A DNA stretch of 64,000 bases from Candidatus Nanoarchaeia archaeon (lineage in GTDB: Archaea > Nanobdellota > Nanobdellia > Woesearchaeales > JACQSR01): assembly GCA_035289105.1 (NCBI GenBank), contig DATDYF010000037.1, forward strand, positions 6,418-70,417. Direction: 5' to 3'. The position numbers were made by a program, and so were the translations under genes. The notes beneath the pieces are model-generated. The model was given only the letters and a program-made list of their open reading frames with translations. It was not told the origin of the DNA and searched no databases. Shown piece after piece: positions 3,990 to 49,139 of this stretch. Position 1 is the stretch's first letter, and the number at the start of each line of letters is the position of its first letter.

Positions 3990-4784
3990 CTATGCAATTC
4001 CCTTCAGCAAAAACCCAACCAGATAAGCAACTCCTGCCGCAAGTCCGCCTACAATCAGCATCTCCAATCCCGATTTCCACCATTCTATGTGCGTTACGTA
4101 AGAGCGGAATGCCCCGACAATGAATAAGACAATGAAAGTTAAGATTATTGAGGTAATGAAAGCGTAAGCAAGGAAAGAAGGGAATGCTATTGACAGGACA
4201 AAGGGAAGCAAAGGGGTAAAGCCTGCAATAACAAATGCAAAAAAGGTTGAAGATGCGCTCTTGATGGGAGTTTTTGTCTCTTCGATTAATCCAAGCTCCT
4301 CGCTCATCATTGTGTCCAGCCAGACCTTCTTGTTTGAGGTGATGATTTTAACAAGCCTGTCTAAGTTCTTTCCCTTGAATCCTTTCTTGGCATAGACTCC
4401 GCGGATTTCCGCTATTTCGCCTTTGGGGTAATTTTCAACCTCCCATTCTTCCCTGCTTCTTTCCCTCTTGTAGAAATCAGACTCTGATTTTGTGCTTAGG
4501 TAATTTCCAATCGCCATTGATATGCCGTCGCCAAAGAGGTTTGCAAATCCCAAAATGAGAACAATTGCAGATGAGAGAGAAGCGCCTGCCACTCCAGAAA
4601 CAACTGCAAAAGTAGTAATAATGCCATCTAACGCCCCATAAACCAAATCCCCAATATATCTGCCGCCTCTCCTGTGCTCCTCGAGATGCCTTTTAATTGC
4701 GGCTTCTGTATGCGCAGATTTTGCCTCCCGGATATCCTTCTTCAGAAACGCCTCTCTTGCCTTTTCAAGCCTTTCGGTGAGCAT
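3990..4784 (-). CDS. VIT1/CCC1-family iron/manganese transporter
   Basis: Motif 'GALDGIITTFAVVSG'. C-terminal polytopic TM region. Length 264 aa. Confidence 0.85.
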   Translation of the reverse strand: MLTERLEKAREAFLKKDIREAKSAHTEAAIKRHLEEHRRGGRYIGDLVYGALDGIITTFAVVSGVAGASLSSAIVLILGFANLFGDGISMAIGNYLSTKSESDFYKRERSREEWEVENYPKGEIAEIRGVYAKKGFKGKNLDRLVKIITSNKKVWLDTMMSEELGLIEETKTPIKSASSTFFAFVIAGFTPLLPFVLSIAFPSFLAYAFITSIILTFIVLFIVGAFRSYVTHIEWWKSGLEMLIVGGLAAGVAYLVGFLLKGIA

Positions 4785-4827
4785 GGAGTATTATCTATTT
4801 TAGTGTATTTAAAGGTTAACTAAGAAA

Positions 4828-5238
4828 TCAGGAAATCATCATAACAGGTTTTCTCTTGGGCCTAATCTGCTCCCACGGAAACAAAAGGCTGGCTTCATAG
4901 TCTTTTAGGTGTTGAGCAAGCCTCCTATGGTAATTCTCCAAAGCTCCAAGCAATTCTATAATCGGACCTTCTGTAATTTCTAAGCCAATAAAATTGTTTT
5001 CCCACCTATTTATCCCAAACTCGTCTGCTTTGCAAATGATACCTTCCAGTTCCGTTTCAATCTCATCCGGAACGGGTATCCCCCAGTATTTAATGTCTCC
5101 TAACGGGGATCTCAATCCAAAGCGGTCGATATGCTGAAAATCAAAAGCTTCGACTTTTCCACCATGGAGGTATTTTTCTCTTATCCCCTTAAAATCCTGC
5201 GCCAGTTTTAATGCTCCAGCAACGTAATCAGCTACCAT
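4828..5238 (-). CDS. Hypothetical protein
   Basis: 136-aa ORF with no recognisable motif. Confidence 0.45.
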   Translation of the reverse strand: MVADYVAGALKLAQDFKGIREKYLHGGKVEAFDFQHIDRFGLRSPLGDIKYWGIPVPDEIETELEGIICKADEFGINRWENNFIGLEITEGPIIELLGALENYHRRLAQHLKDYEASLLFPWEQIRPKRKPVMMIS

Positions 5239-5366
5239 GTAAATGGGGAATGATTTTAGGTTTATAATCTTTTTGGTAAATTTTATTTATTTTCTTTTAT
5301 CACAGCCTGTGCTGCCAGTGGCAGAACAACAACCTATTTAAAATCAAGCTTATAGCAGAGTATATT

Positions 5367-5735
5367 GTGAAGGATATAACTTACCCAACAGTCGAGAGAA
5401 TAATCGAGTATAACTATCTTGCGCTTACATTAATCAAGGTGAAAAGAGCGGATGAACCGAAGGTGCTGGACAGGGGGAAACTGATTGATGTTTTAGCTCG
5501 ATGCCAGGATGCCGAAGGCGATATTTATGATAAGGCCGTGTGCTTGCTGACGGGGCTTGTGCAAAAACACCCTTTTGCAAGCGGAAATCGAAGGACTGCG
5601 TTCATTGCAGCGAAGGGTTTTTTGGTGGGCAATGGCGCCCCATTTCGAATCAAGGATGAGCCAAAAATGGCGAAAGTGCTGCTTGGCATCAGAGAGGGTT
5701 ATTATTCCAATAATGAGGTTAAGGAGTTGGCTTAA
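5367..5735 (+). CDS. Fic/Doc-family toxin (death-on-curing-like)
   Basis: Fic/Doc motif 'HPFASGNRRTAF' matching HxFx(D/S)GNxR. GTG start. 122 aa. Confidence 0.8.
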   Translation: MKDITYPTVERIIEYNYLALTLIKVKRADEPKVLDRGKLIDVLARCQDAEGDIYDKAVCLLTGLVQKHPFASGNRRTAFIAAKGFLVGNGAPFRIKDEPKMAKVLLGIREGYYSNNEVKELA

Positions 5736-5737
5736 AA

Positions 5738-5860
5738 ATGGTAAAATCAGAGAGTTTAAGCGATAGGGAAAGACTGGAGATTTTGTCTGAAGAGTTGGAG
5801 AAGTTCGAGAATTTAATCAGGGGTCACAGGAAACTTCTTAAAGCAATAGGCGAACTTTAG
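5738..5860 (+). CDS. Small ORF (40 aa) directly downstream of doc. Possible antitoxin-like partner.
   Basis: ATG 3 nt after the doc stop. Encodes MVKSESLSDRERLEILSEELEKFENLIRGHRKLLKAIGEL. Overlaps the ppdK 3' end by 4 nt. Below the 60-aa ORF-track cutoff. Confidence 0.3.
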   Translation: MVKSESLSDRERLEILSEELEKFENLIRGHRKLLKAIGEL

Positions 5861-8472
5861 AGCCCCTTCAGCACAGCCTGGGCAGCAGCAAGCCTAGCTA
5901 TTGGCACACGATAAGGAGAACAGCTTACATAGTCCAACCCTATTTCGTGGCAGAATTCAACGCTGTTTGGGTCTCCGCCGTGCTCTCCGCAGATTCCGAA
6001 TTCCATAGGCTTTACCTTTCTTGCCTTCTCGACGCAGAGCTTCATCAGTGAGCCAATGCCAAACCTGTCAATTTCCTGGAACGGGTCTTTTTCAAAGATT
6101 CCTGCCTCGATGTATTTTGGGATAAACTTGCCTGCATCATCCCTTGAAAAGCCATAAGTAGTTTGTGTGAGGTCGTTAGTTCCGAAAGACATAAATTCAA
6201 CATGAGGAGCAATTTCATCTGCCGTAACGCATGCCCTTGGCAGCTCTATCATTGTGCCAATCTTGTAATGGACCTTTACGCCTGACTGCTTGATTAGCTT
6301 TTCTGCCGTATTTACAATAATGTCCTTTAGGATTTCAATTTCCTTTGAGTTTGCAACAACCGGGATTTCAATCTCCGGCAAGGCTTTCTTTCCTGATTTA
6401 TTGACATCAATTGCGGCCTCTATTATTGCAGTTGTCTGCATCTCGGCAATTTCAGGGTAAACTAATGCCAATCTGCATCCCCTGAAGCCAAGCATAGGGT
6501 TGAATTCAAACAGGTTTGCGATGGTTGACTTTAATTTTTCCACCGGAACTTTCATTTCCCTTGCCAGTTCGTTTATTTCCTTCTCTTCCTTTGGCAGGAA
6601 TTCGTGAAGTGGGGGGTCAAGCAGCCTAATCGTAACAGGCAATCCACTCATCACCTTGAAAATTCCTATAAAATCTGATTTCTGGTAAGGCAAAATCTTT
6701 GCAAGTGCCTTTTTCCTTCCGGCCTCATCATCCGCAAGAATCATCTCCCTTACTGCTTTAATCCTTTCACCCTCGAAGAACATGTGCTCCGTCCTTGTAA
6801 GCCCGATTCCTTCAGCACCGAATTTTAATGCAACTTCAGCGTCTTTGGGCGTATCAGCATTTGTCCTTACCTTTAATTTTCTCTTTTCATCTGCCCATTT
6901 CATTAAGGTCTGGAAGTAGCCTGAGATTTCAGGATCCTTGACTGGAACTTGTCCCAGATAAACCTCTCCTTCGGAGCCATCAAGGGTAATCCAATCAAGC
7001 TCGTTAACTTTAACTCCATTTGCCATGAAGTATTTTTCCTTTTCATTGATTGCAATATCTCCGCATCCTGCAACACAGCATTTTCCCATTCCTCTTGCTA
7101 CAACTGCTGCATGAGATGTCATTCCTCCTCTCGCGGTTAAAATCCCCTGTGCTGCATTCATTCCCTCTATGTCTTCTGGGGAAGTTTCAGTTCTTACAAG
7201 AATTATTTTATTGCCTTCATTTGCCAATTCCTTAGCCCTTTCTGCTGTGAATGCGACCTGACCAACTGCTCCTCCCGGGGATGCAGGAAGGCCTTTTCCG
7301 ATTATCTTTGCCTTTGATTTTGCAATCGGGTCGAGCTGCTTATGCAATAACTGGTTTAATTGATTTGGGTCAACGCGAAGCAACGCAGTATCCCTGTCTA
7401 TCAATCCTTCCTTATCCATCTCGACTGCAATCCTTATGGCAGCCAATGCAGTCCTTTTTCCAGTTCTCGTCTGGAGCATGAATAATTTCCCTTCCTGGAT
7501 TGTGAATTCTATGTCCTGCATATCTTTGTAATGGTGCTCAAGTCTCTTGTAGATAGATTCAAGCTTCTTGTAGGCTTCCGGCATCTTTTCCTTAAGCTTT
7601 GAGATTGGCTCCGGAGTTCTTATTCCTGCAACTACATCCTCACCCTGGGCATTGATGAGGAATTCGCCATAAAATTTGTTCTCGCCAGTTGAAGGGTCTC
7701 TGGTAAATGCGACTCCTGTAGCTGAAGTGTTTCCCATGTTGCCGAAAACCATAGTTTGAACGTTAACTGCGGTGCCGAGCAGCCCTTTAATGTCATGGAT
7801 TCTTCTGTATGCAACTGCGCGCTTTCCCATCCAAGAATTGAAGACAGCGTCAATTGCCATCTGAAGCTGTTTTTTCGGGTCGTCGGGGAATGAAGTTCCT
7901 GTATGCTTTTTGATTATTTTTTTGTATTCCTCAACAACTTTTTTAAGGTCGGAAGCGTCAAGCTCTGTATCATAAGCAACCCCTTTTGTTTCCTTGATTT
8001 TATCCAGAACCTCCTCAAAGTGCTTATGCTCAACCCCCATGACAACATCGCCGAACATATTGATGAATCTCCTGTAGGAATCGTAAGCGAAGCGCTCATT
8101 GCCTGTTTTTTTTATTAAACCCCGGATTGTTTCATCATTTAATCCTAAATTTAGAACAGTGTCCATCATGCCCGGCATTGAAACCTTTGCTCCTGAACGA
8201 ACGGAAACAAGCAAAGGGTTTTCCTCGTCGCCAAAACCTGCCTTCATGTCCTTTTCAAGGCGCTCTAGATTTTTATGAACTTGATCGAGAACCTCTTTTG
8301 GATAAGTCTTGTTGTTTTTATTGTAAATGTCACAAACCTCAGTTGTTATTACAAATCCAGACGGCACCGGTATCCCTAAAGAAACCATCTCTGCCAGATT
8401 CGCCCCTTTGCCGCCAAGCAAGTCCTTCATCTGGCCATTGCCTTCGTCGAAATAATAGACATACTTTTTCAT
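5857..8472 (-). CDS. ppdK: Pyruvate, phosphate dikinase
   Basis: N-terminus 'YVYYFDEGNGQMKDLLGGKGANLAEM'. Central phospho-His region 'GGMTSHAAVVARGMGK'. C-terminal PEP-utilising barrel 'CGEHGGDP'. 871 aa. Confidence 0.93.
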   Translation of the reverse strand: MKKYVYYFDEGNGQMKDLLGGKGANLAEMVSLGIPVPSGFVITTEVCDIYNKNNKTYPKEVLDQVHKNLERLEKDMKAGFGDEENPLLVSVRSGAKVSMPGMMDTVLNLGLNDETIRGLIKKTGNERFAYDSYRRFINMFGDVVMGVEHKHFEEVLDKIKETKGVAYDTELDASDLKKVVEEYKKIIKKHTGTSFPDDPKKQLQMAIDAVFNSWMGKRAVAYRRIHDIKGLLGTAVNVQTMVFGNMGNTSATGVAFTRDPSTGENKFYGEFLINAQGEDVVAGIRTPEPISKLKEKMPEAYKKLESIYKRLEHHYKDMQDIEFTIQEGKLFMLQTRTGKRTALAAIRIAVEMDKEGLIDRDTALLRVDPNQLNQLLHKQLDPIAKSKAKIIGKGLPASPGGAVGQVAFTAERAKELANEGNKIILVRTETSPEDIEGMNAAQGILTARGGMTSHAAVVARGMGKCCVAGCGDIAINEKEKYFMANGVKVNELDWITLDGSEGEVYLGQVPVKDPEISGYFQTLMKWADEKRKLKVRTNADTPKDAEVALKFGAEGIGLTRTEHMFFEGERIKAVREMILADDEAGRKKALAKILPYQKSDFIGIFKVMSGLPVTIRLLDPPLHEFLPKEEKEINELAREMKVPVEKLKSTIANLFEFNPMLGFRGCRLALVYPEIAEMQTTAIIEAAIDVNKSGKKALPEIEIPVVANSKEIEILKDIIVNTAEKLIKQSGVKVHYKIGTMIELPRACVTADEIAPHVEFMSFGTNDLTQTTYGFSRDDAGKFIPKYIEAGIFEKDPFQEIDRFGIGSLMKLCVEKARKVKPMEFGICGEHGGDPNSVEFCHEIGLDYVSCSPYRVPIARLAAAQAVLKGL

Positions 8473-8495
8473 TTTGACATTGGAGAAGGGGGGTG

Positions 8496-8503
8496 TTTAT
8501 AAA
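8496..8503 (-). promoter_or_regulatory. TATA box (tttataaa) about 25 nt upstream of the ppdK start
   Basis: Position relative to the ATG at 8472. Confidence 0.35.
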
Positions 8504-8514
8504 TGTTAACCTAC

Positions 8515-8592
8515 TTATTTAGAATACTTCTTCACCAATTCCATCGCAGTTTTGCCGTCAATTTTTTCCTTGGAACTGCATTAGCAAGGATG
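8515..8592 (-). pseudogene. Diverged copy of the gatE 3' end (encodes ..IDGKTAMELVKKYSK*). att-like remnant.
   Basis: Runs of identity to the gatE 3' end at 10362-10440 with about 70 percent identity over about 70 nt. Begins with the shared agaatacttcttcac. Confidence 0.6.
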
Positions 8593-8597
8593 GACAA

Positions 8598-8768
8598 TTA
8601 CCCCAATGTTTTCAAGTCCTCTTCCAGGTCTTTAATGGAGTATTCAGATTTGAAGCCCTGCTCGACCAGATATGATTGCATTTCCCAAACAGTTAAGTTG
8701 GCAATCTTTGCGGCTTTGCTTAGTGAAATCTTTCCCGCAATATAATCGTCCTTTGCTTTCTTCTTCAT
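8598..8768 (-). CDS. UPF0175-family small protein (antitoxin-like partner of PIN/DUF3368 toxins). No adjacent toxin, so orphan.
   Basis: 56-aa ORF MKKKAKDDYIAGKISLSKAAKIANLTVWEMQSYLVEQG.. with the UPF0175-like 'LSxAAxxAxxxxxEF' pattern. Below the ORF-track cutoff. Confidence 0.5.
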   Translation of the reverse strand: MKKKAKDDYIAGKISLSKAAKIANLTVWEMQSYLVEQGFKSEYSIKDLEEDLKTLG

Positions 8769-8983
8769 GAAATCGCCATATCCAAGGCTTAACAGCTTTC
8801 TATACTCGCGGACAAGATTAATTGAGCGATTGTTGTCCGCTCGTAATAAGCAAAGAGCATTGTTTATTGCTCAATTGTTTACACTCTTTGCTATAAGCAT
8901 GGTGAACCTGTCAAGGGTTTCCTCTCTGCTTAATTTAAATGTTTCGGTTGAGAGTGTTGAATTTCTTAGAAGGCGGTTCCGAC

Positions 8984-9035
8984 TCAGGAAGGATACCTCT
9001 TCACCAATTCCATCGCCTTTCTGCCGTTGGAATGG
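8984..9035 (-). pseudogene. Second diverged gatE 3'-end fragment (encodes ..NGRKAMELVKRYPS*)
   Basis: Shares 'cttcaccaattccatcgcc' with the 8521 fragment and 'ccatcgcctt' with the gatE 3' end at 10390-10399. Confidence 0.55.
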
Positions 9036-9097
9036 AAAGATTTATAAATTCTATGATTATTCTAATTAACACAGATTTAAATGTAGGTTAAACTGAA

Positions 9098-10357
9098 ATG
9101 ACACAGATTAAGGATGCCCTGAGGGAGTTTAATCCCTGGTGGGAAGGCAAGTTTAAGGTTGAGTTCAAGGAGAGAGAAATACTTTCCAAAATGGAGAAAT
9201 TCCTCAAGCTGCCCCAAATTATTGCGCTAACCGGATTAAGGAGGGTTGGAAAGACTACCCTTATGCTGAAGATTGGAGAAGAGTTCGTAAACAAGGGCCT
9301 TGAGCCAAGGAGGGTACTGTACTTTTCCTTTGATGAATTTAGAAAAACAGGCCTAAGGGAGGTTATTCAGGCATATGAAGAGATGATGGAAGCAAATGTC
9401 AGGGACGGCAAATTTTTGTTATTGCTGGATGAGGTTCAGAAACTGGATGGATGGGAGGACCAAATTAAAGGCATTTATGACTTGTACGGCAAAGGAATGA
9501 AAATCATCATATCCGGTTCGGAATCACTTTTCATCAAGAGAAAAACGAATGAAACTCTTGCGGGCAGGATATTCTCATTTAAGGTTGGTCTCCTGACGTT
9601 TAGGGAGTTCCTAATCTTTCGGGGGGCCAGATTAGAGCCAGTAGGGCTCTACGAGAGAGAGCTAAATAGGCTCCTAGAAGATTACATCATTACCCTCGGA
9701 CTCCCGGAATTAGTCCATGTTAGGGATAAGGAGATTATAAAAAAATATGTCAAGGAGGGCATTATAGACAAAGTTGTTTACAGGGATATGCAGCAGATGT
9801 TTAGAATAAAAGACATATCAAAAATAGATTCTATTCTAAATATGCTTCTTGAAGAACCGGGCCAGCTGTGGGATCTTTCTGAACTTGCAAGCGAGCTTGG
9901 AATATCACGGCAAACACTTTCCACATACCTAACTTACCTTGAGGAGTCCTTTCTTGTTAAAAAGCTATACAACTACTCAAAAAACAGGAGAAAGGTTGAA
10001 AGGAAACTAAAAAAATATTATCCAACCATAATCTCGCCTGACCTCTTATTCAGGGATGACAGCTTTTCCAAATCAAAGGTGTTTGAATGGCTGATTGTCA
10101 TGCAACTCGACCCTGATTTCTTCTGGAGGGACACATTCAAGAACGAAGTTGATATAGTCATGTTTGACAAAGAAAAAGCCATGCCGGTTGAGGTAAAATA
10201 CGGAAAAATAGAACATGGGGGGCTTTTGGCATTTGCGAAGAAGTTCAGTGTAAGTGAGGGAAAAATTGTCTCCAGGAGTTCAGAGGAAAAAAGGAAAGTC
10301 AATGGCATGGTTGTTAATGTAGTCCCGGCAGTTAAATTCTTACTTAGAAAAACCTGA
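9098..10357 (+). CDS. AAA+ superfamily ATPase (COG1373 / AAA_14-DUF4143 type)
   Basis: N-terminus 'NPWW' with Walker A 'GLRRVGKTT'. Walker B 'LLLDEVQ'. C-terminal DUF4143-like region. 419 aa. Confidence 0.8.
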   Translation: MTQIKDALREFNPWWEGKFKVEFKEREILSKMEKFLKLPQIIALTGLRRVGKTTLMLKIGEEFVNKGLEPRRVLYFSFDEFRKTGLREVIQAYEEMMEANVRDGKFLLLLDEVQKLDGWEDQIKGIYDLYGKGMKIIISGSESLFIKRKTNETLAGRIFSFKVGLLTFREFLIFRGARLEPVGLYERELNRLLEDYIITLGLPELVHVRDKEIIKKYVKEGIIDKVVYRDMQQMFRIKDISKIDSILNMLLEEPGQLWDLSELASELGISRQTLSTYLTYLEESFLVKKLYNYSKNRRKVERKLKKYYPTIISPDLLFRDDSFSKSKVFEWLIVMQLDPDFFWRDTFKNEVDIVMFDKEKAMPVEVKYGKIEHGGLLAFAKKFSVSEGKIVSRSSEEKRKVNGMVVNVVPAVKFLLRKT

Positions 10358-10361
10358 CACG

Positions 10362-11789
10362 TCATCCAGAATACTTCTTCACAACCTCCATCGCCTTCTT
10401 TCCGTCAATCTTTCCCCTGAATTTCTGCATTACAATGCCCATTAATGCGCCCTGGGATGCGCCTTTGTTTTCATCGCAGATTTTCTTTATTTCTTTCTCT
10501 ATGTCTTCTCCTGATTCCTTTGCGTATCTGCCAATGTCGAATTCTCCTTTGGCATAATCGATAAGAACATCAAATACAACGTCTTTTGAGATTTTTCCCT
10601 CATTGAGGTAGGAGAAAATTTCTTCGTATTCTTTGTCAGCAAGGCGGTTTATCTCAATTTCAAATTTCCTCTTTATTTCCTTCGGGGCAGAGATTAATGT
10701 CTCAACGATAAATGCAGGCTTTACATTCTTGTTCTTTTTTGCGATAGAGGCAAACAAGGCGAGCTTTCCAGACTTTGCAAGCAACTGCGCAAGGTCTTTT
10801 CTTATGCCAAATTCCTTCTCTATATTTTCAGCGGATTCTGCCAATGAAACGGGCTTTTCAACTTCAATCATTTCCTTTGTTACCTGAATTGGAGGAATGT
10901 CTGTTTCCGGGTACATTCGAGCAGCACCAGGCATCGGCCTCAAGAAAGATGTTGTGAAATCCGGCTCTGCCTTCCTCACTTCGTTTTGAATGCTCTTTTT
11001 TTCCCTGAGCAGTTTCTGCTGCCTCTCAACCTCAAAATCGATAACCTTTGGAATCGACCTTAAATCCTGAAATCCCTTTATTTCTGTTCTTGCGCCGCCT
11101 TTTATTGAGATATTCACGTCCTGCCTTATTGTTCCAAGGCCGCGCTTTACATTTGGGACAGAACGCAAGATCATGCCAATTGCCGATGCTGTTTCCTTTG
11201 CGTGCTCCGGGTCGACAATATCAGTTTCTGTTGCAATTTCCAGCAGAGGAATTCCAAGCCTGTCCAAGCGGTATTTTGTGAAATCTTTTGCATCCTCGAT
11301 TTTTTTAGCCGCCTCTTCTTCTAAGCATAACGATGCCACCCTCACATTGCCTTTTGATGTTTTAATATACCCATTTCTTCCGACAAGCGCAGTCCTTTGA
11401 AATGCGGATGTGTTTGAGCCGTCTATTACTATTTTTCTCATGAAGTGTATTTCATCCTCAACTTTGCAGTTCAGAAGCTTAGCGATTACCAATGCCGTGC
11501 GCAATGCCTCGGGGTTAACATTATGGGGAGGCTCTTCGTCAAACTCCACAAGGCAGGTATCTTCAGAATGGGAGTCATAAACAAATCCCTTGCCTTTTTT
11601 CATTTCATACAGTGCTGCAACATCAATTTCGCCTGTTTCTCCAGCGGACGCCCTGAGATAGCGCTCGAAACGAGTGTTAGCCTCTCTGGAGCTGTTAAGT
11701 GTATTGCAATTGCAGAATAACTTTTTTCCTTCAAGTTGCTGGTGAATTTCAAGGCCGCAACGGAAGCCGAGCTCTTTGTAGTCTTTCAT
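10362..11789 (-). CDS. gatE: Glu-tRNA(Gln) amidotransferase subunit E, compact form
   Basis: 'GLEIHQQL..KLFCNC' N-terminus. YqeY-like tail 'IDGKKAMEVVKKYSG'. Translationally coupled to gatD by a 4-nt overlap. Only 475 aa, shorter than the typical 620 aa. Confidence 0.72.
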   Translation of the reverse strand: MKDYKELGFRCGLEIHQQLEGKKLFCNCNTLNSSREANTRFERYLRASAGETGEIDVAALYEMKKGKGFVYDSHSEDTCLVEFDEEPPHNVNPEALRTALVIAKLLNCKVEDEIHFMRKIVIDGSNTSAFQRTALVGRNGYIKTSKGNVRVASLCLEEEAAKKIEDAKDFTKYRLDRLGIPLLEIATETDIVDPEHAKETASAIGMILRSVPNVKRGLGTIRQDVNISIKGGARTEIKGFQDLRSIPKVIDFEVERQQKLLREKKSIQNEVRKAEPDFTTSFLRPMPGAARMYPETDIPPIQVTKEMIEVEKPVSLAESAENIEKEFGIRKDLAQLLAKSGKLALFASIAKKNKNVKPAFIVETLISAPKEIKRKFEIEINRLADKEYEEIFSYLNEGKISKDVVFDVLIDYAKGEFDIGRYAKESGEDIEKEIKKICDENKGASQGALMGIVMQKFRGKIDGKKAMEVVKKYSG

Positions 11790-13036
11790 TCCGCACTTCT
11801 ATCTGAGATTTCTCCCCTAAGATTTTCTGCCATCAATGACGCCGCCTCTTTTTTCTTGTAATTCCCCAGAAGCCAGGCAAGCTTGATGAATGCCGTTTCA
11901 GGGAGCGTGTCTTCGCAGTATATCACGCCAGCATTAGCCAACTTCACGGCATTTGAATAAACATGCGAGTGGGTTCTGCCGTATATGCATTGGGAAGTCA
12001 TCGCAACCAAAGTGCCTGATTTTATTAAATCAATTATTCCTTCCATTATAGGCTTATTGACTTCAAGCCCAACCGGAGCGTGGCCCAGCCCTGTGCCCTC
12101 TATTACTAATCCTTTGTAGCCCTGATAGACATCAAACTGCTCCCTTTTCATGTTTGTGTGTATCTTGATTAATGCAATCTTGTCCTCCATCTTTGGATTT
12201 ATCCGCCATGCCTCAGCAGACCTTTTTTTATGCTCCCTTAGAAACTCTATCTTTCTTGTTTTGTAGTTTATCCTTGCAATGGGAATGTCGTTTACGGCCT
12301 TGAATGCGTCCCTTCTTGAGGCATGCATTTTCCTGGTCTTTGTTGGGGGCAAAATAACACAATTATTATCATCCATATTTTCATGCATGCAAATTGCAAT
12401 GCCGGCAAAATCTGTCTTTGCGACAAACTCTGCTGCGCAGATAAGATTCATTGCAGCATCCGAAGAGCCACGGTCAGAAGAGCGCTGGGCTCCGACTAAA
12501 ATTACAGGTATTGGGATTTCACACATAAATGCAAGGGCTGCTGCTGAATACCCCAAAGTATCCGTGCCATGGGTTATTATTATGCCGTCAACATTCTTTT
12601 TCAGCTCTTCCTCAACAGCATGCGCCATCTTCTGGTAATGCTCAAAGCGCATGTCATCAGACCACATCTGCGCAATAAGCTTGGAGTCCACGTTTGCAAT
12701 ATCCTTCAGCTCCGGAAACATGGAAATTATCTCTTCCGGGCTGAACCTCGCAATTACTGCGCCTGTTTCATAGTCCACCTTAGATGCAATTGTGCCGCCT
12801 GTATGGAGGATTGTTATGCTCTTTTTCGACTTTTCTCTTGCAATATGCCTTGCCTTCTCTTCAGAAACAGCTAAATGCTTTGACAGCAAGGAAATCTTCT
12901 TGATTCTGTCCTTTGATATGCCGATGTTGTAGCCGGATTTGAGCTTAAGGACAACGTTGCCCTCGCTTGGCATAAGTGTGCCTTCGATAGTTTCATCTGA
13001 TGTTTCAACCAACACCCTGTCTCCAGCCTCATGCAT
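11786..13036 (-). CDS. gatD: Glu-tRNA(Gln) amidotransferase subunit D (asparaginase-like)
   Basis: Asparaginase motif 'HTGGTIAS' and 'ITHGTDT'. 416 aa. Operon with gatE. Confidence 0.85.
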   Translation of the reverse strand: MHEAGDRVLVETSDETIEGTLMPSEGNVVLKLKSGYNIGISKDRIKKISLLSKHLAVSEEKARHIAREKSKKSITILHTGGTIASKVDYETGAVIARFSPEEIISMFPELKDIANVDSKLIAQMWSDDMRFEHYQKMAHAVEEELKKNVDGIIITHGTDTLGYSAAALAFMCEIPIPVILVGAQRSSDRGSSDAAMNLICAAEFVAKTDFAGIAICMHENMDDNNCVILPPTKTRKMHASRRDAFKAVNDIPIARINYKTRKIEFLREHKKRSAEAWRINPKMEDKIALIKIHTNMKREQFDVYQGYKGLVIEGTGLGHAPVGLEVNKPIMEGIIDLIKSGTLVAMTSQCIYGRTHSHVYSNAVKLANAGVIYCEDTLPETAFIKLAWLLGNYKKKEAASLMAENLRGEISDRSAE

Positions 13037-22236: not shown

Positions 22237-22284
22237 ATGCTTGGTGCTGCTTTTCATTCCCAATTTCGAGGCTTAACAAGCCTA

Positions 22285-22400
22285 TTATCCCCGAATCATA
22301 GATTTTTTCCAGGTTATGTGCCATTTTTTTGCGAGAAAATTTGGTTTTTCTAGGTTAGGCGTAATTTCAACAATATGTTTCTTAAGAAAGGACAACTATT
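22285..22400 (-). pseudogene. Frameshifted remnant of a third MNT-type nucleotidyltransferase
   Basis: About 100 nt (22285-22385) is about 85 percent identical to 41597-41698 inside the intact NTase gene. The reverse translation 'KKHIVEITPNLEKPNFLAKK' then shifts frame at an A-run and stops. Confidence 0.5.
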
Positions 22401-40915: not shown

Positions 40916-41368
40916 TCAGGGAGACAATCCTTTTTCCTTTATTATTCTATCAATCTTTTTGATGATGCCGTTATGGAAATCCAATATTTCCTTGGCTTCC
41001 TCGACGCTGACGGTTTGGCCGTAATACTTTGAGCCGTTTCTTTTGTATCTGAACCTATCGAGCGTTTCCAGCATTTGTATATTAAAATTGAATTTTGCAA
41101 GATAGGCAAACGAAGCCTGATGGGAGTAGGATTTATAACCTTCTATTGCTAAAACTGCGTCTGCAAAATCCCTAAGCGCGTCATAGACATTCTCAAAGAC
41201 GATTTTTGGGTAGTTCTGGGTCAACAGTGACTTCGAGTCCTTGATTCTGCTATTCATATCCCTAACAAGTGATTTTGCTAAAGCTAAATCGGGCGCTGCC
41301 TTTTTTACTTCGCCAATCTCAAGGTAATAGTCAAAAGGTTTCATAATCAAGGTAACCAAACAGTACAA
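40916..41368 (-). CDS. HEPN domain protein (partner of MNT)
   Basis: 'FRYKRNGSKYYGQ' paralogous to 21814-22236. Overlaps the upstream NTase gene by 38 nt. Confidence 0.7.
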   Translation of the reverse strand: MYCLVTLIMKPFDYYLEIGEVKKAAPDLALAKSLVRDMNSRIKDSKSLLTQNYPKIVFENVYDALRDFADAVLAIEGYKSYSHQASFAYLAKFNFNIQMLETLDRFRYKRNGSKYYGQTVSVEEAKEILDFHNGIIKKIDRIIKEKGLSP

Positions 41369-41861
41369 CCCCGTTTATTAGGTTGGTATAGAGCTCTTTT
41401 GGAATCTTTCCGTTCTGAACCAGCAGGATATGAATGCCCCTATTTAACATTTTCTCAAATATTTTCGTACTAACCGAATATTTTTCGGAAGTTACTACTG
41501 CAATATCTATGTCGCTTTTCAAGACATCCTCTCCTCGAGAGTAACTTCCAAATAGGATTATGGCTTTCGGGTTGTAGTGCTTTCTCAAAAAGTCTATTAC
41601 CCCGGAATCATAGACTTTTTCCAAGTTATGCAACCTTTTTTTTGCGAGAAAATGCGGGTTTTCTAGGTTTGGCGTAATTTCCACAATATGCTTCTTAACT
41701 TCCCTTTTAACCAGGCTTTCCTTTTCCAGCTCCTCAAGGGCATTAAGGACGCTGTTAGGGTTTACATGGATTTCCCTTGCAAGCTCCCTTATATAGAATT
41801 TCCTGGAGGGATTGTCAAAAATCCTTGAGATTATTTTCTGTTTTACATTCATTTTATACAA
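41331..41861 (-). CDS. Minimal nucleotidyltransferase (MNT) with wHTH
   Basis: Motif 'GSYSRGEDVLKSDIDIAVV'. Paralog of 21278-21817. Confidence 0.8.
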   Translation of the reverse strand: MYKMNVKQKIISRIFDNPSRKFYIRELAREIHVNPNSVLNALEELEKESLVKREVKKHIVEITPNLENPHFLAKKRLHNLEKVYDSGVIDFLRKHYNPKAIILFGSYSRGEDVLKSDIDIAVVTSEKYSVSTKIFEKMLNRGIHILLVQNGKIPKELYTNLINGVVLFGYLDYETF

Positions 41862-41899
41862 TTGTATAATATTTTATACAATTGTATATTTAAATGTTT

Positions 41900-42490
41900 C
41901 TATTTCCCAAACCTGAACACATAATAAGTCATAAGGCCAAGATGGGCTTTTTTCTTGCTTGCCTGCTTGAATTTGAAGCCTGCTGACTCGACCATTTTCT
42001 TCCATTCATTGTAAGTTTGGAAAGTAAAGTAAAGATGTGGCTTCTGCTTCCAGAAATTATGCGCAATGTCATTCAGGCTTAGCATAATTCTTCCCAGTCC
42101 TGTCACATATGTCTCCTCTGAAAGAATAAATTCTCCTCCGCCTTTTGTCACGCGATAGATTTCGTTTAATTGAGATGGAACGTCATTGTTGTGGTGCAAT
42201 GCGCCAATTGCAAAGACATAATCGAAAACGTTGTCATGGAAGGGCAATTTTAAGACGTCGCCCTGAACAAAATCAGAGTTGTTTTGGGTAATTATCCTAT
42301 CAATCCCTACAATTTTGGCATCAGGATTTCTTTCTGAGATAACCTCTCCAACTCTTAAATCACCACACCCAAAATCAAGTATTAGCCCTGAAACATCACC
42401 CGGAAAAACATCAGACGCCCTTCTGTCTGCTTTACTTTCCCTTATGCGGAGATAAAAGGGGTTTGAAGCTACTAAACTGTACAGGCTCAT
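41900..42490 (-). CDS. Class I SAM-dependent methyltransferase
   Basis: Motif I 'ILDFGCGDL'. 'AIGALHH' motif. 196 aa. Confidence 0.72.
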   Translation of the reverse strand: MSLYSLVASNPFYLRIRESKADRRASDVFPGDVSGLILDFGCGDLRVGEVISERNPDAKIVGIDRIITQNNSDFVQGDVLKLPFHDNVFDYVFAIGALHHNNDVPSQLNEIYRVTKGGGEFILSEETYVTGLGRIMLSLNDIAHNFWKQKPHLYFTFQTYNEWKKMVESAGFKFKQASKKKAHLGLMTYYVFRFGK

Positions 42491-43972: not shown

Positions 43973-46243
43973 ATGGAGCCCGCACGCAGCCTAAAAAACG
44001 TGGAATTGGAGGATATTCGCAGAAGGCTAAGCTATATGGGCGATGACCCGGAAACTATCGAAGACAAGATAAGGGAAGCGGAAAGAGCGGAAACATTGTA
44101 TAATGAGGCTTTTAGGTTAAGGCACGGGGAGAACGGCTTAAGTATTGGTAAAATAAGCAAAAGGTTAAACGTTTCATATGGAACAGTTTGGGGCTGGTTG
44201 TATGGCGGAGCGAAACCTGCCGGATTAAAGGGGGTAACCCCAACTTTCAATATTCCTCAAGGCAAATCTGCGGAGTTTGCATATGTCTTGGGGGTATACG
44301 CTGCTGTTGCCCAATGCGGAAAGGATTGCGGATATTTTAAGAGCAAAAAAAGCGGAGGTTTTTTGGTGCACAGCAAAACTGAGGCGCACCTGCACCCTTT
44401 AAAGGAGTCTCTTGAATCCATATTAAACAGCAAGGCGGATATTAAAGAAGAACAAAGGAAGGGTGGCAATTATAGGTTTCTGCGTTTCCCTTATGAGCTC
44501 CGGAGATATTTGAGCTTTATGTCCGATAAAAACCAGAATGTTATATGGGAACACCTTTTTTCGGATGAAGAAAAGATTTCTTTTATTAACGGATTTTTGG
44601 ATTACCGTGGAGAATTTCGCGAAAAACCCGCCCCATTTGTATTAATAGAAAAGCAGAATGGTTATTCTTTAATTGAGGATATTGGCCTGCTCTTTTCATC
44701 GCTTGGCATAATACCCTCCATTCATTATAAAACGATGCTTTGCATCCTGGATAGTGGCGATATTCATAAGCTGGTTAAATACAGGCCAGCCGATGCAAGG
44801 GCTCAAAAGTTAGGGGACATCACCCCTGCACCAACCCCGGAACAAGATGCTATCGGGGTTTTCTCAAGATTTCAAGAGCTCCATGGAGCTAATGGCAAGA
44901 TGCCTTTGTATAGGATTGCAAAATTACTGGACGTCAATTATAGCACTATAGCAAACTGGAACAAGGGTGCCCTGCCACATAGGGTCCGCAATTATCGAAG
45001 ATTATTGGAAATAAGAAAAAGTAGGGGGGATGTTGATGTAATTGGCTTTGTTTATAGGAATATCAAACAGGATTCAGAATTTGCAAGGGATGTGGCATTA
45101 AGAAGAAGCCATAATGAAGTACTCAACAGCTACAATCAGATTCTAAGGGATGCTGAGCCAAGGGCCCACCCAGAACTGATATATTTAGGGGGTGAAAAAT
45201 TGAAGAAGGCAATAACTCAATTAAAACGGCAAAAAGCAGTTGCCAAAATAGAAGCAGTACAAGAAGATAAAGTTGATAAAACCGAAGCAAGGCGCTATGA
45301 AGGTGGAGCAGATGAAACCCAGGGCAGGCTAAAACTCATAAGAGAAGCTCACCAAAAGTACTTGTTAAATAAAGCATCCCGGGAGCAGTCCCAAGTTTCA
45401 TTAGGCCCGCCCTTAAAAAGCGATGAAATACTTGCATATGCTAAAGTTATTGCAGGGGATGGGTTAAGGGTTTCTTCAAACGGGGGAGATAGGCTTAACG
45501 AAGTCATAAACACATACATCCGTTCCAATGATTATTTTACTCCAAACGAGGCTTATTTGTTTGTGTCAGAATTGTTATGCATTAGGACAAGGAATGGTAG
45601 CCATAAAGACATAAAAACAGGCATGAAATCGCTAGAGGCAGTAATGAACAGGAAAGAATTTGATAGTTATTTTTATCGCAACGGAAATGGAGTGTACTAT
45701 GAGAAACTTGCAAAAGGGGAAATATTGTCAAAACTTTCAGGGCTTCTCTCAAATTCAGATAATGGTTCAAAAATATATGGCATTAACAATCCAAATTCCG
45801 ATTATACATTCGCTGAGGGGGGAATAGAACTTTTTGCTGATGACGAATCAGATGGCGCATCTTTATTGGGCGCTGCCGATGGAAAAGACAAATTAGCCGA
45901 TGCCAATGTTAGGCAGGAAGATAGGGGAAATCGAAAATTATACTGGGCAGCAATACGGGAAAAAGACGAGGGACCGCCAGGAAATAACGAATTTTATGCC
46001 ACTCCCGGAGAGGAGGCGAAAGGAATTAATAAACTGTTAGGCCATCTTCTAATGTACGCTGTAAGAGAACTGGATGGAGATAACTTAACTAAAAGGGAAG
46101 ATGCACGTGAATGGTTTGAGAGTACTGATGAAAAATTTCTTTTTTCGTTCTTGAATATTTGCGATTACCTAGACCTTAACCCTGATTACGTTAAGAAGCA
46201 AATATATAGCCCTTCGAGGGGAAACCTCCGTTTTGTAGATTAG
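43973..46243 (+). CDS. Large hypothetical protein with HTH motifs and degenerate LAGLIDADG-like dodecapeptide pair
   Basis: 'AEFAYVLGVYAAVAQCG' and 'KISFINGFLDYRGEF' resemble the two LAGLIDADG motifs. HTH-like 'LSIGKISKRLNVSYGTVWGW' and 'LYRIAKLLDVNYSTIANW'. 756 aa. Confidence 0.55.
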   Translation: MEPARSLKNVELEDIRRRLSYMGDDPETIEDKIREAERAETLYNEAFRLRHGENGLSIGKISKRLNVSYGTVWGWLYGGAKPAGLKGVTPTFNIPQGKSAEFAYVLGVYAAVAQCGKDCGYFKSKKSGGFLVHSKTEAHLHPLKESLESILNSKADIKEEQRKGGNYRFLRFPYELRRYLSFMSDKNQNVIWEHLFSDEEKISFINGFLDYRGEFREKPAPFVLIEKQNGYSLIEDIGLLFSSLGIIPSIHYKTMLCILDSGDIHKLVKYRPADARAQKLGDITPAPTPEQDAIGVFSRFQELHGANGKMPLYRIAKLLDVNYSTIANWNKGALPHRVRNYRRLLEIRKSRGDVDVIGFVYRNIKQDSEFARDVALRRSHNEVLNSYNQILRDAEPRAHPELIYLGGEKLKKAITQLKRQKAVAKIEAVQEDKVDKTEARRYEGGADETQGRLKLIREAHQKYLLNKASREQSQVSLGPPLKSDEILAYAKVIAGDGLRVSSNGGDRLNEVINTYIRSNDYFTPNEAYLFVSELLCIRTRNGSHKDIKTGMKSLEAVMNRKEFDSYFYRNGNGVYYEKLAKGEILSKLSGLLSNSDNGSKIYGINNPNSDYTFAEGGIELFADDESDGASLLGAADGKDKLADANVRQEDRGNRKLYWAAIREKDEGPPGNNEFYATPGEEAKGINKLLGHLLMYAVRELDGDNLTKREDAREWFESTDEKFLFSFLNICDYLDLNPDYVKKQIYSPSRGNLRFVD

Positions 46244-46295
46244 AAGGTTTTTCCAGGCAAACATTAAAAAATACGCTTTATTACTCCATCTTCCC

Positions 46296-46448
46296 ATGAA
46301 ATACAAACTCGTCTGCTTTGATGTTGACGGCACGCTAATAGACGGAGTTGAATTCAGCTGGACTCATCTACATAATTACTTCAATGTCGATATTAAAGAT
46401 TTGCGAATCGCCATAAATCGAATTAAGTCTAAATCTTTATATACTTAA
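46296..46448 (+). pseudogene. Duplicated 5' fragment (50 codons) of the HAD hydrolase gene at 47299
   Basis: 46292-46400 is about 90 percent identical to 47295-47403, including the 5 nt upstream of the ATG. Encodes MKYKLVCFDVDGTLIDGVEFSWTHLHNYF.. then diverges and stops. Confidence 0.5.
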
Positions 46449-46496: not shown

Positions 46497-47267
46497 ATGA
46501 TTGATTCTGCAAGAAAACATCTGGAAGAGGGCATTTCTAGAATTATTAATACTGATTCCATTGACAAAAAAATCGAAGATACTGCATCGTTATATGTCGA
46601 ATGCTTTGAAATGGAATTAGAGAAAATCAAGAAATTCGGGCAGCAGGAGAGGGTCTCTTATATTACCGGGCTAAGAAATGGGAGGCTTCAGGGCACAGAC
46701 AAAGGATTAAGGGAGGCTAGAAAAAGGACAAATGAAAAAGTTTCTTCTTTGCTTAATGCGCTGTACGATGGTGCAAAAAATATGGAAGAGGAACCGAAGC
46801 GAGAGATTTATGCACCAGTCAATAAAATAAGGGGGATGCTGATGCTGCGCGAATCCATCACAGGAGGGAAGGAAAGCCCTATTGAGAAAGACCTGGAGAA
46901 ACGCATTCCTGAGATTTCGGTAAAATCACAGGGAAAACATGCCGATGTCAGATACCTCACTGATTTGTACACAGCGTGCTATTCAGACTGCTTTGGCAAT
47001 GCAATAGAAAGCATCAGGGCCATGGCTGAAGTAAACCAAAAAGCCGTTTATGACATAGGCGAATCATTCGGCCGGGTACAATATTTCTTCAAAGAGAGGA
47101 ATAGTGCAATGCTAAGCTTATCTGAACAGATAAAACAATTGCTCACCGAAGTTGATGTCGCAGTCAGAAACCTTCAGCCTGAACAAAAACAAAAAATTTA
47201 CATGGCGACAAACAGCATCAGGCTAGCCCTAAGCCCTGATAAATATTGGCCGGTAAGCAGACAATAA
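46497..47267 (+). CDS. Hypothetical protein (cargo between the duplicated HAD 5' ends)
   Basis: 256-aa ORF with no recognised family. Confidence 0.5.
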   Translation: MIDSARKHLEEGISRIINTDSIDKKIEDTASLYVECFEMELEKIKKFGQQERVSYITGLRNGRLQGTDKGLREARKRTNEKVSSLLNALYDGAKNMEEEPKREIYAPVNKIRGMLMLRESITGGKESPIEKDLEKRIPEISVKSQGKHADVRYLTDLYTACYSDCFGNAIESIRAMAEVNQKAVYDIGESFGRVQYFFKERNSAMLSLSEQIKQLLTEVDVAVRNLQPEQKQKIYMATNSIRLALSPDKYWPVSRQ

Positions 47268-47298: not shown

Positions 47299-47952
47299 AT
47301 GAAATACAAACTCGTCTGCTTTGATGTTGACGGCACGCTAATAGGCGGAGTTGAATTCAGCTGGACCCACCTCCATAATTATTTTAGGGTTGATTTGAGG
47401 GAACGTGAAGACTGGAAGGAAAGATTCTATAAGGGGAAGATAACCTACCTTGAGTGGGCACTGCATGACATAGGAATGTGGATTGAGAAGGGAGCAAAGA
47501 AGGGGGATTTTCTAAAGGCAATCTCTGTATTCAGTTTAATGCCTGGCGCCAGGGAGACTCTTACCGAGCTGAAGAAAAAAGGCGTAAAGCTTGCAATTAT
47601 ATCCGGCTCTCTTGACTTTATCTTGGAGCATTTCATACCAGACTACAAAGAGATATTTGATGATGTTTTCATAAGCAGGCTTATTTTCGGAAAAGACGGC
47701 AAAATAAAAGAGGTCAAGGCAACGCAGTATGACCAGGACAGGAAGGCAGACGCTTTAAGGCTTGTTGCAAAGAAGCATGGCTTTTCATTGAAGGAATGCG
47801 CATTTGTGGGCGACCATGAGAATGACATCGAGATAATGAAAATTGTGGGCAAGGGAATTGCGTTTGACTGCAAATCAGATGAGCTGAGAAAGATAGCGGA
47901 TGTTGTTGTTAAGAAGAAGGATTTGAGGGAGGTGCTGAAGCATTTGAGCTAA
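47299..47952 (+). CDS. HAD-IB hydrolase, phosphoserine phosphatase-like
   Basis: Motif I 'CFDVDGTL'. 'GDHENDIEIM' motif IV. 217 aa. Confidence 0.7.
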   Translation: MKYKLVCFDVDGTLIGGVEFSWTHLHNYFRVDLREREDWKERFYKGKITYLEWALHDIGMWIEKGAKKGDFLKAISVFSLMPGARETLTELKKKGVKLAIISGSLDFILEHFIPDYKEIFDDVFISRLIFGKDGKIKEVKATQYDQDRKADALRLVAKKHGFSLKECAFVGDHENDIEIMKIVGKGIAFDCKSDELRKIADVVVKKKDLREVLKHLS

Positions 47953-48007: not shown

Positions 48008-48514
48008 ATGCTGAAAGTTATATTTGACACAAACATTTATGGGTTCTTGCTTAAAGAGGTGGATGCTACTGAGATTGAAAGAAAAATAAGCCAGGATAAG
48101 GAATTTGTTGTATATGGCTATCCATTGATAAGGAAGGAGATTCGAGACATACCAAAAGTCACTAAGCTCAGCAAAAAGACTAGAATTCTTTTGTTGGGCC
48201 TTTACGACAGAATAACTGGCAACCATTTTCTTGAACATTCCATAAGGATTACCAGTCTAGCTAGAAAATACTACGATTACTACAGAAAACTTGGGGGAGT
48301 CTATGGGTGGGATACATCTGTTCGAGTTGATTTTATGATAGTTGCATGTGCAAGTTTTCATGGGCTTGATATTGTATACTCTGCAGATAGCAAAACACTT
48401 CTTGGAAAGCATGCTTTGAAAGCTTATAAGCACATAAACCTAAGGGAGAATTGCAGAACACCCAATTTTCTGGAATATGAAGACCTGCTTGGAAAACTCA
48501 GAAGCCTAGTTTAA
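48008..48514 (+). CDS. PIN domain protein (VapC-like nuclease)
   Basis: 'VIFDTNIY' N-terminal acidic motif. Later conserved D residues. 168 aa. Confidence 0.65.
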   Translation: MLKVIFDTNIYGFLLKEVDATEIERKISQDKEFVVYGYPLIRKEIRDIPKVTKLSKKTRILLLGLYDRITGNHFLEHSIRITSLARKYYDYYRKLGGVYGWDTSVRVDFMIVACASFHGLDIVYSADSKTLLGKHALKAYKHINLRENCRTPNFLEYEDLLGKLRSLV

Positions 48515-48749
48515 TTTATGAACAGAAGTTGATGCTTTAATGAACCTGTTGATTTCCCTAACAAAATCCGGGTCTTTCTGGGCCTCCATTATAGCATCCA
48601 ACAATTCTTTCTGCGTCATACGGGGTATAGAAGATATGCCCCTATTTAAAATTTTGCCTGCTAAGGATAGATTTGAGGGAGGTGCTTGGGCACTTGGGCT
48701 GATGGGTTCGCAAAGATTTAAATGCAACCCCTATTGAAAAAGGTAAGGG

Positions 48750-49106
48750 ATGACAAACAAAATCATAAAAACCATTCAAATTATAAGGGATGCAATTCTT
48801 GTTCTCTTTTGCACCCTCGCAGTTTTTGTAATACCAACCACTACAAAAGGTGCACCTATGGGAGATGCTCAAAAAATGATAGTTATCCTATTTGGAGCCA
48901 TAGCCTTTCTTCTGCTTTTGGATTTAATCTTTGCCATAATCAAGAAAGCATTTTGGTTTCAGAAAACAATTAACGGCTTAACACTCATCCCCATGTTTAT
49001 TATAACTGGATTTGGGATTGGCGGGGGAAACATAGCGGTGATTGTCATTGGGTCGCTGTTTATGTTGCTTAGCATTGTAATGCTAATCGGAGTTAAAAAA
49101 CAGTAA
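48750..49106 (+). CDS. Hypothetical integral membrane protein
   Basis: Three or four hydrophobic helices. 118 aa. Confidence 0.5.
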   Translation: MTNKIIKTIQIIRDAILVLFCTLAVFVIPTTTKGAPMGDAQKMIVILFGAIAFLLLLDLIFAIIKKAFWFQKTINGLTLIPMFIITGFGIGGGNIAVIVIGSLFMLLSIVMLIGVKKQ

Positions 49107-49139
49107 ATATTTTAAAGCCAGTTTCGCTACCCTTCAATC

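Follow-up and report, generated by a model that had tools for sequence, protein, structure and literature searches.

Three copies of the gatE 3' end around an antitoxin-like gene and an ATPase gene in a groundwater woesearchaeal genome

The window analysed is a stretch of 64,000 nt from a groundwater Woesearchaeota/Nanoarchaeia genome (assembly GCA_035289105.1, contig DATDYF010000037.1, positions 6,418 to 70,417, forward strand; GatE accession HLC65257.1), and the locus under study is the 3' end of gatE together with the DNA between gatE and ppdK. Very probably gatE and ppdK were once direct neighbours, and two separate insertions then entered the end of gatE in tandem, each bringing a substitute terminus; gatE stayed whole because each incoming piece carried an in-frame terminus of the gatE type. 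Each insertion would have pushed the previous terminus downstream, where decay would follow. Read from gatE, the order is working terminus (N), ATPase insert, displaced end B, UPF0175 insert, displaced end A and ppdK promoter; the orphan gatE ends thus form an ordered array N, B, A downstream of one intact gene, in which A adjoins the ancestral neighbour.

Three copies of the gatE end, as placed by the first-pass annotation, were recovered by several means. Repeat-family search: one family, with 8521-8572 as reference and ungapped identities of 81% (10368-10419) and 65% (8990-9041) for the other two members. BLASTN with the gatE end as query, over 20 kb: copy A over 52 nt (81%, E 5e-10), extended to about 78 nt by gapped alignment, and copy B over 38 nt (79%, E 3e-5); the similarity is not of the low-complexity type. 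A 21-mer of copy A (≤3 mismatches) was found at exactly three sites (8527, 8996, 10374), and 0/100 shuffles gave a match. The translated ends read ..AMELVKKYSK (A), ..AMELVKRYPS (B) and ..AMEVVKKYSG (native), each closed by its own in-frame stop codon; the 18-mer cttcaccaattccatcgc is common to A and B, and the native end differs from it at 3 positions. These readings agree with the annotation, as does the presence of one cargo gene in each interval (UPF0175 and AAA_14/DUF4143 ATPase, by Pfam). The extent that it gave for copy B (8984-9035) was upheld in part: homology is secure over 8984-9028 (45 nt) and doubtful over 9029-9035. A 2-nt deletion and an internal stop further upstream make copy A a dead pseudogene fragment. 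Homology among the copies stops at the stop codon, and the DNA beyond is unrelated. The region 8400-10500 is 99.95-100% identical in six other contigs (JGI, ENA and Logan, from separate samples; one of the six covers it from 8998 only), so the locus is not an assembly artefact.

Mismatches were counted over positions -45 to -7 among the three copies and the native gatE end of a relative, L003, whose GatE is 89% identical: A-L003 3, N-L003 4, B-L003 5, A-B 6, N-A 7, N-B 9. The distances form a star around the L003 end, and N has no derived change in common with A or B; this pattern argues against duplication in place and fits a working end that arrived from outside. By BLASTN to the L003 end, B is 89.5% identical over 38 nt and A 83% over 71 nt. 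The native ends of L003, L007 and P0017 read AMELVKKYS/G, and A and B keep the clade-typical MELVKKYS ending; AMEVVKKYSG occurs as the working end of the window only and is the odd one out against the clade. An attempt to map crossovers by hybrid patterns in N, B, A and L003 was abandoned, the sequences being too short and the distances star-like.

The succession of gatE and ppdK is conserved in a subclade, and what lies between them differs per lineage: a DUF6036 nucleotidyltransferase, a winged helix-turn-helix (wHTH) gene and a truncated UPF0175 gene in L003; two small open reading frames (ORFs) without assigned function in L007 (GatE 74%); a pseudouridine synthase in L004 (58%); a pyridoxal phosphate-dependent enzyme in L032 (about 52%); a saccharopine dehydrogenase and an ExoIII-family nuclease in L034 (about 51%). 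The uninterrupted junction that the annotation had proposed to look for is present in L111-L113 (GatE 64%), where 148 nt with the ppdK TATA box and no gene separate the two. Extra gatE-end copies in cargo-less relatives, which would have told against insertion, were not seen (L003, L004, L007, L111), and none was found at the gatE-ppdK loci of the other relatives listed here. The stop codon of copy A lies 8 nt from the start of colinearity with the conserved ppdK promoter block of L003; copy A therefore sits at the original position of the gatE end. Since L003 keeps a piece of the UPF0175 gene at the same place, the UPF0175 insertion probably predates the split from the L003 lineage. The UPF0175 insert would have come first and the ATPase insert later, in the window lineage only. 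In a metagenome scan with a GatE alignment, the matches listed were ≤58% identical over the full gene, and no close ATPase-less strain was among them. Two further features were noted at L007: a reverse-transcriptase fragment (RVT_1, 1061-1585) just 5' of gatE, and an intein-like insertion with a faint LAGLIDADG_3 match in ppdK (4011-7877, 1288 aa).

The same scar recurs in the window: five such events were counted within the 64 kb (two at gatE and three others), at three genes and four different gene ends (Table 1). At the ppdK 3' end, the working terminus reads ..AAQAVLKGL, the L003 terminus AAQAVLKANK and the displaced one AAQAVIKENK; the inserted Fic/Doc gene and the 40-aa ORF, which overlaps the ppdK stop, are absent from L003, where 44 nt only lie between ppdK and the next gene. 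At the 3' end of an HAD phosphatase gene, the insert consists of a 168-aa ORF and a small ORF, and the displaced end encodes a peptide (DLREVLGHLG) identical to the native end of the relative L115. For both cases a base-exact empty site is available in the 89% relative. At the inner edge of the displaced HAD end, where displacement of the terminus (see below) predicts an illegitimate joint of microhomology type, the window has AAGGAT[AGAT]TTGAGG against AAGGATTTGAGG in the relative; at gatE, divergence makes the joints unreadable. The remaining event concerns the HAD 5' end, of which a 101-nt fragment (-5 to +96) lies upstream of a 256-aa ORF. Directly 5' of this fragment stands a 756-aa ORF (43973-46243) with matches to HTH_23 and HTH_38 and, on visual reading, motifs resembling LAGLIDADG; solved structures gave no relative for it, and no further family matched.

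Comparable structures were met in other Woesearchaeota. In L028 (3332-3429) the gatE end recurs 46 nt downstream, and in L034 (5322-5400) a 762-aa ORF has its end repeated after 50 nt; in both, the insert of about 50 nt has a short hairpin followed by the second gene-end copy with its own stop codon. In L093 a perfect direct repeat of 31 nt (5278-5308, 7241-7270) from the 3' end of a giant surface-protein gene (..LVKMIIDVFE, then stop) flanks an M23 peptidase gene, and the displaced copy overlaps the 3' end of a homolog of the window ATPase (family PDC-S01, see below). Stop-proximal repeats of comparable strength were rare in a control scan of 497 ORFs. A match in L061, seemingly a 5.8-kb element at gatE, was discarded as a chance match inside an amidase gene; a doubtful match in L043 is A/T-rich.

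Exchange of DNA with the L003/L115 lineage is visible as patches of 87-96.5% identity inside a background of 72-81%. One such patch is a 487-nt block (48670-49156; L115 4622-5108) of 96.5% identity between flanking genes of 72-79%; it contains the displaced HAD end, a 118-aa membrane-protein gene and intergenic DNA, and is bounded exactly by two lineage-specific inserts/indels. These bounds and the identity contrast point to recent recombination between the window and L003/L115 lineages. Further patches are 40926-41918 (87.5%) and 8672-8786 (92%); the last comprises the first 32 UPF0175 codons and 18 nt upstream, matches the truncated L003 copy and is flanked by genes of 77-80% identity. From such patches it follows that DNA of related lineages enters and recombines. 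Two side observations belong to the same comparison. A 113-nt fragment (22272-22384) is 87% identical to part of a CDC48-adjacent nucleotidyltransferase gene in L115 and in the window also lies beside CDC48, just past a different wHTH-nucleotidyltransferase gene and the next ORF; it is apparently what remains of a toxin-antitoxin-like cassette that has been replaced. Of a 191-aa ORF complete in the window (49140-49715), L115 keeps the first six codons only (ATGGAAATAGCAGATTTTTAG; L115 5092-5112, window 49140-49156), likely by a deletion in that lineage.

A recombinase was searched for with the following results. Integrase: none in about 45 of the 61 non-overlapping window ORFs (Pfam, NCBIfam, PHROGs), in line with the annotation, and no integrase family among the precomputed Pfam matches that the retrieved loci of relatives list for their genes. 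Recombinase gene: none encoded in any of nine inserts (46 nt to 1.9 kb), and no fragment of an integrase in these inserts or in the scanned ORFs. Virus or plasmid with a matching attachment site (attP): five viral-contig scans (2 by DNA pattern, 3 by protein) gave a chance microvirus match (L006) and nothing else; neither a free attP form nor the same element at the same target was met in the viral scans or at the ATPase loci, genome and metagenome collections not having been scanned for the att motif. End motif of attC type or resembling terminal inverted repeats: twelve insert ends share TATA-like A/T runs only. Casposon, transposon or insertion sequence: the ends of the inserts lack inverted repeats, and neither a transposase nor Cas1 is present; the repeats are 45-78 nt long and imperfect. 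The annotation had read the locus as a tandem pair of integrative elements at the gatE 3' end; its structural part, two tandem insertions with substitute termini, holds (empty site in L111-L113, A at the ppdK promoter), and the integrase-borne agent was not recovered in any insert.

The agent is tentatively taken, with somewhat less than an even chance of being right, to be an integrase-free, homology-anchored displacement of the gene terminus by DNA from related lineages and not a dedicated mobile element. DNA would arrive from a related Woesearchaeote in which the cargo gene was already a tight downstream neighbour of gatE; it would pair with the recipient through the conserved gatE body, and its far end would join illegitimately within the last few dozen bases of the recipient gene, so that the donor gene end and its neighbour gene were inserted and the recipient stub left behind. 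Selection would keep an event only where gatE and the ppdK promoter both still work afterwards, and toxin-antitoxin and defence cargo would resist later deletion. C-terminal displacement by illegitimate recombination that homology facilitates was proposed for type VI secretion system (T6SS) and Rhs loci (PMC5361080). Suitable donors plausibly exist, since the gene downstream of gatE differs in every relative. The new gatE ends keep the reading frame and are similar to those of relatives, and the cargo lies within 4 nt; cargo genes abut the new gene end or overlap it by 4 nt, like natural neighbours in a compact genome. What favours displacement over decayed integrase-borne elements is how many events there are, how tiny the inserts can be, how varied the targets are and that no recombinase was found; the two inserts of about 50 nt (L028, L034) are hard to read as decayed elements.

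Several points weigh against displacement. No donor with a gatE ending in MEVVKKYSG followed by this ATPase was found, the closest ATPase homolog being 65% identical; the copies (38-78 nt) are too short for crossovers to be placed or donor-derived tracts to be tested statistically; and an integrase may lie elsewhere in the genome, of which 64 kb were analysed. In the HAD repeat (33 nt), 6/6 mismatches lie in the 16 nt nearest the stop (p ~0.007), a clustering that leans towards a crossover inside an att-like core, with conservation of the DLREVL codons as the alternative cause. Site-specific archaeal integration at protein-gene 3' ends, one site being re-used for tandem arrays, is moreover well documented (PMC6563490) and predicts the same scar: among the integrated elements of Thaumarchaeota, 14/68 occupy 3'-distal parts of protein genes, and crenarchaeal att sites measure 29-69 bp.

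Site-specific integration is a quite conceivable, though not the expected, source of the locus. Two small elements, with attP mimicking the last 45-80 nt of gatE, would have been integrated successively by a tyrosine-type integrase whose genes were later deleted or which acted in trans. A regenerated target with a displaced fragment is the very scar by which genomic islands are mapped (PMC4383910), and the thaumarchaeal and crenarchaeal cases just cited are precedents for 3'-end targets, tandem re-use and att length; defence and toxin-antitoxin cargo is usual for mobile elements, the short orphan UPF0175 gene suggests that insert 1 has decayed, and both the HAD mismatch clustering and the perfect 31-nt repeat of L093 count in its favour. 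Against this, each of the five events, all within 64 kb of a small genome, would have had to be trimmed to one or two genes with both att copies kept; inserts of about 50 nt exist; and, as the five events involve three genes and four gene ends, a single trans-acting integrase is insufficient. The negative searches for an integrase in the nine inserts, the scanned ORFs and the Pfam hits of the relatives' loci, for an attP-bearing relative in the viral scans and for flanking repeats at the other ATPase loci examined count on the same side. Classic integrative elements are therefore not supported as the agent: with the scar recurring at unrelated genes and with tiny inserts, the integrase-free route is at least as likely.

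Integration of Campbell type without an integrase is improbable. A small circle with one copy of the gatE end, possibly a cassette excised from a relative through its own flanking repeats, would recombine homologously across 40-80 bp and give the same product as displacement or site-specific integration, with no recombinase gene needed; flanked cassettes could then move between related lineages at orthologous sites, in keeping with the high identity of the UPF0175 patch (92% vs 77-80% background) and with the homologous exchange evidenced between lineages. The origin of the first flanked copy and of the inserts of about 50 nt is left unexplained, and neither a circular form nor a further genomic copy was met for any cassette. 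Local duplication, in which the copies arose in place by long target-site duplication, slippage or unequal crossing-over and the cargo came independently, is very improbable. The copies are indeed direct repeats in the same orientation; but it is the dead copies that have retained the ancestral sequence and the copy under selection that diverges, N resembles A or B no more than it resembles the gene end of another species, and the sequence after each copy is unrelated, with no tandem unit. At the HAD 3' end and at ppdK, too, the displaced copy is colinear with the empty site of a relative and it is the working end that differs. Chance similarity, low-complexity sequence or mis-assembly can be regarded as refuted: in this A/T-rich genome weak matches are common (22/65 loci have some match at E<0.01), but the E values and shuffles reported above, the conserved frame and stop codon and the six identical contigs are of another order.

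The ATPase encoded by insert 2 gave AAA_14 (1.2e-30) and DUF4143 (1.8e-20) in Pfam and matched PADLOC family PDC-S01 (PDLC04787, E 3.9e-62, residues 22-417); by these profile matches it is an ATPase-nuclease of a candidate single-gene defence family. In PDC-S01 an ATPase and a PD-(D/E)XK domain are fused; the family is common in archaea, and its antiviral activity is putative (PMC12988326). It has crossed domains several times (PMC12988326; PMC3424549). Homologs of 60-65% identity are spread across Woesearchaeota, Aenigmarchaeota, Methanoperedens and Aminicenantes, elsewhere as solo genes in unrelated contexts with other neighbours. The att-like motif which the annotation had suggested to look for beside other copies was absent: three homolog loci from long contigs have no convincing flanking repeat, gatE-like or otherwise, and the ATPase as a mobile gene with repeats of its own was dropped. 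A supposed ATPase 3'-end remnant after copy B (VESVEFLRRR vs VPAVKFLLRK) found no support in a profile hidden Markov model from 120 homologs. Local alignments 3' of the three stops were not significant for the comparisons with B (p 0.79, 0.76); between N and A a single match of 17 nt was marginal (p 0.036) and lies 26-120 nt from the stops. Four Logan contigs from different samples (L094-L097) all end 12 nt past the stop of a PDC-S01 ATPase homolog (P0144), which suggests strain-level variation or a repeat at that junction.

The UPF0175 gene of insert 1 (PF03683) scored 42.7 bits against a cutoff of 27.9 and matches profile positions 29-75 only, the C-terminal two-thirds; no toxin partner ORF adjoins it at the locus. 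Rfam gave no match in 8300-10600, the non-coding spacer included, and the inserts show no compositional anomaly (GC 0.37-0.44 vs 0.42-0.46 in the flanks).

Table 1. Features of the gatE-ppdK locus and of the other displaced gene ends in the window
Feature	Position	Strand	Basis and remarks
Displaced ppdK end (AAQAVIKENK, then stop)	5283..5315	minus	colinear with ppdK end, intergenic region and next gene of L003
Cargo at ppdK end: Fic/Doc toxin gene (5367-5735) and 40-aa ORF (5738-5860)	5367..5860	plus	Pfam Fic
ppdK	5857..8472	minus	Pfam; terminus ..AAQAVLKGL, then stop
ppdK promoter and leader (aacatttataaac)	8473..8514	minus	shows colinearity with L003 from 8507 on
Displaced gatE end A (..KEKIDGKTAMELVKKYSK, then stop), frame-shifted	8515..8592	minus	repeat and BLASTN matches; apparently the original chromosomal gatE terminus
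Cargo 1: UPF0175 antitoxin-like gene, 56 aa, short, orphan	8598..8768	minus	Pfam E 4.6e-11
Non-coding spacer of insert 1	8769..8983	none	9-nt inverted arms 8849-8857 / 8884-8892
Displaced gatE end B (..NGRKAMELVKRYPS, then stop)	8984..9035	minus	secure homology 8984-9028
A/T-rich stretch 5' of ATPase gene, TATA-like runs; inner edge of insert 2	9036..9097	plus	read from sequence; putative promoter of the ATPase gene
Cargo 2: AAA_14 + wHTH + DUF4143 (PD-(D/E)XK) ATPase	9098..10357	plus	Pfam; PADLOC PDC-S01
Working gatE terminus N (..GKIDGKKAMEVVKKYSG, then stop)	10362..10440	minus	differs from clade-typical MELVKKYS; apparently a substitute end that came in with the ATPase insert
gatE, intact, 475 aa	10362..11789	minus	Pfam GatB_N and GatB_Yqey; NCBIfam GatE equivalog
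gatD	11786..13036	minus	Pfam GatD_N, Asparaginase, Asparaginase_C; 4-nt overlap with gatE start
Displaced HAD 5' fragment (-5 to +96; 101 nt)	46291..46391	plus	91% to working 5' end, 88% to L115
256-aa ORF	46497-47267		between displaced HAD 5' fragment and working HAD gene
HAD phosphatase gene, substitute 3' end (..DLREVLKHLS, then stop)	47299..47952	plus	followed by inserted 168-aa ORF
168-aa ORF	48008-48514		inserted 3' of HAD gene; no Pfam or PHROG match
Displaced HAD 3' end (DLREVLGHLG, then stop)	48670..48702	plus	colinear with empty site in L115

The ATPase gene and gatE are convergent, and their stop codons lie 4 nt apart. GatE matched its NCBIfam equivalog (NF003107) with 559 bits (cutoff 456), and its length is within the range of its relatives (470-497 aa). 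As GatE profiles have 622-630 positions and the match to them falls into two stretches, Woesearchaeota of this clade are suggested to lack the usual GatE insertion domain. The displaced fragments account for short spurious ORFs, such as 8767-9069 over B and 8503-8745 over A on the opposite strand, and for the odd intergenic spacing.

The locus provides a sequence-level record of the gain of defence and toxin-antitoxin genes in a reduced archaeal genome with few recognisable mobile elements, and displaced gene-end fragments offer a handle for finding such events genome-wide and placing them in time order; the weight of the finding lies in its recurrence at several housekeeping genes of a DPANN genome and not in the gatE locus alone. 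If the integrase-free route is true, terminal displacement, so far described for bacterial polymorphic toxin loci, extends to housekeeping genes and to archaea. That streamlined DPANN archaea routinely gain such genes by gene-end displacement, without mobile-element machinery, is a broader proposition and a rather unlikely one at present; if it were true, fossil gene ends would be an ordered, datable record of acquisition.

Among known systems, islands and integrated elements at gene 3' ends (PMC4383910, PMC6563490) are alike in that the insert sequence regenerates the target, a displaced 3' fragment marks the far end and repeated use of the site leads to tandem arrays; the window repeats of 30-80 nt are also in the archaeal att range. 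They differ in that the window inserts have no recombinase and measure 0.05-1.9 kb, against several kb or more, and in that four gene ends are affected in 64 kb, one of them a 5' end with a 101-nt repeat. Displacement arrays of Rhs, contact-dependent inhibition (CDI) and T6SS genes (PMC5361080) have in common with the window a gene body as anchor, a replaced 3' end, ordered orphan ends and no integrase; there, however, the host is a proteobacterium and the displaced ends encode different toxins whose diversity is selected, whereas here, in a DPANN archaeon, the gene is a housekeeping gene, the new end is equivalent and the gain is the neighbouring cargo gene. Casposons in the 3' end of the aEF-2 gene (PMC6563490; PMC4779613) are likewise inserted in tandem in an essential archaeal gene related to translation, but their terminal inverted repeats, short target-site duplications, Cas1 and PolB have no counterpart at the window locus. 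Integron cassette arrays also grow by single-gene addition next to the promoter, push older cassettes downstream and commonly hold toxin-antitoxin cargo; unlike them, the window has no IntI, attI, attC or shared end motif, and its repeats copy the end of the host gene. Defence hotspots between core genes resemble the gatE-ppdK interval in content that differs per lineage, with a candidate PDC-S01 gene as cargo (PMC12988326); unlike these, the gatE-ppdK hotspot keeps, as displaced gene ends, a physical record of the successive insertions.

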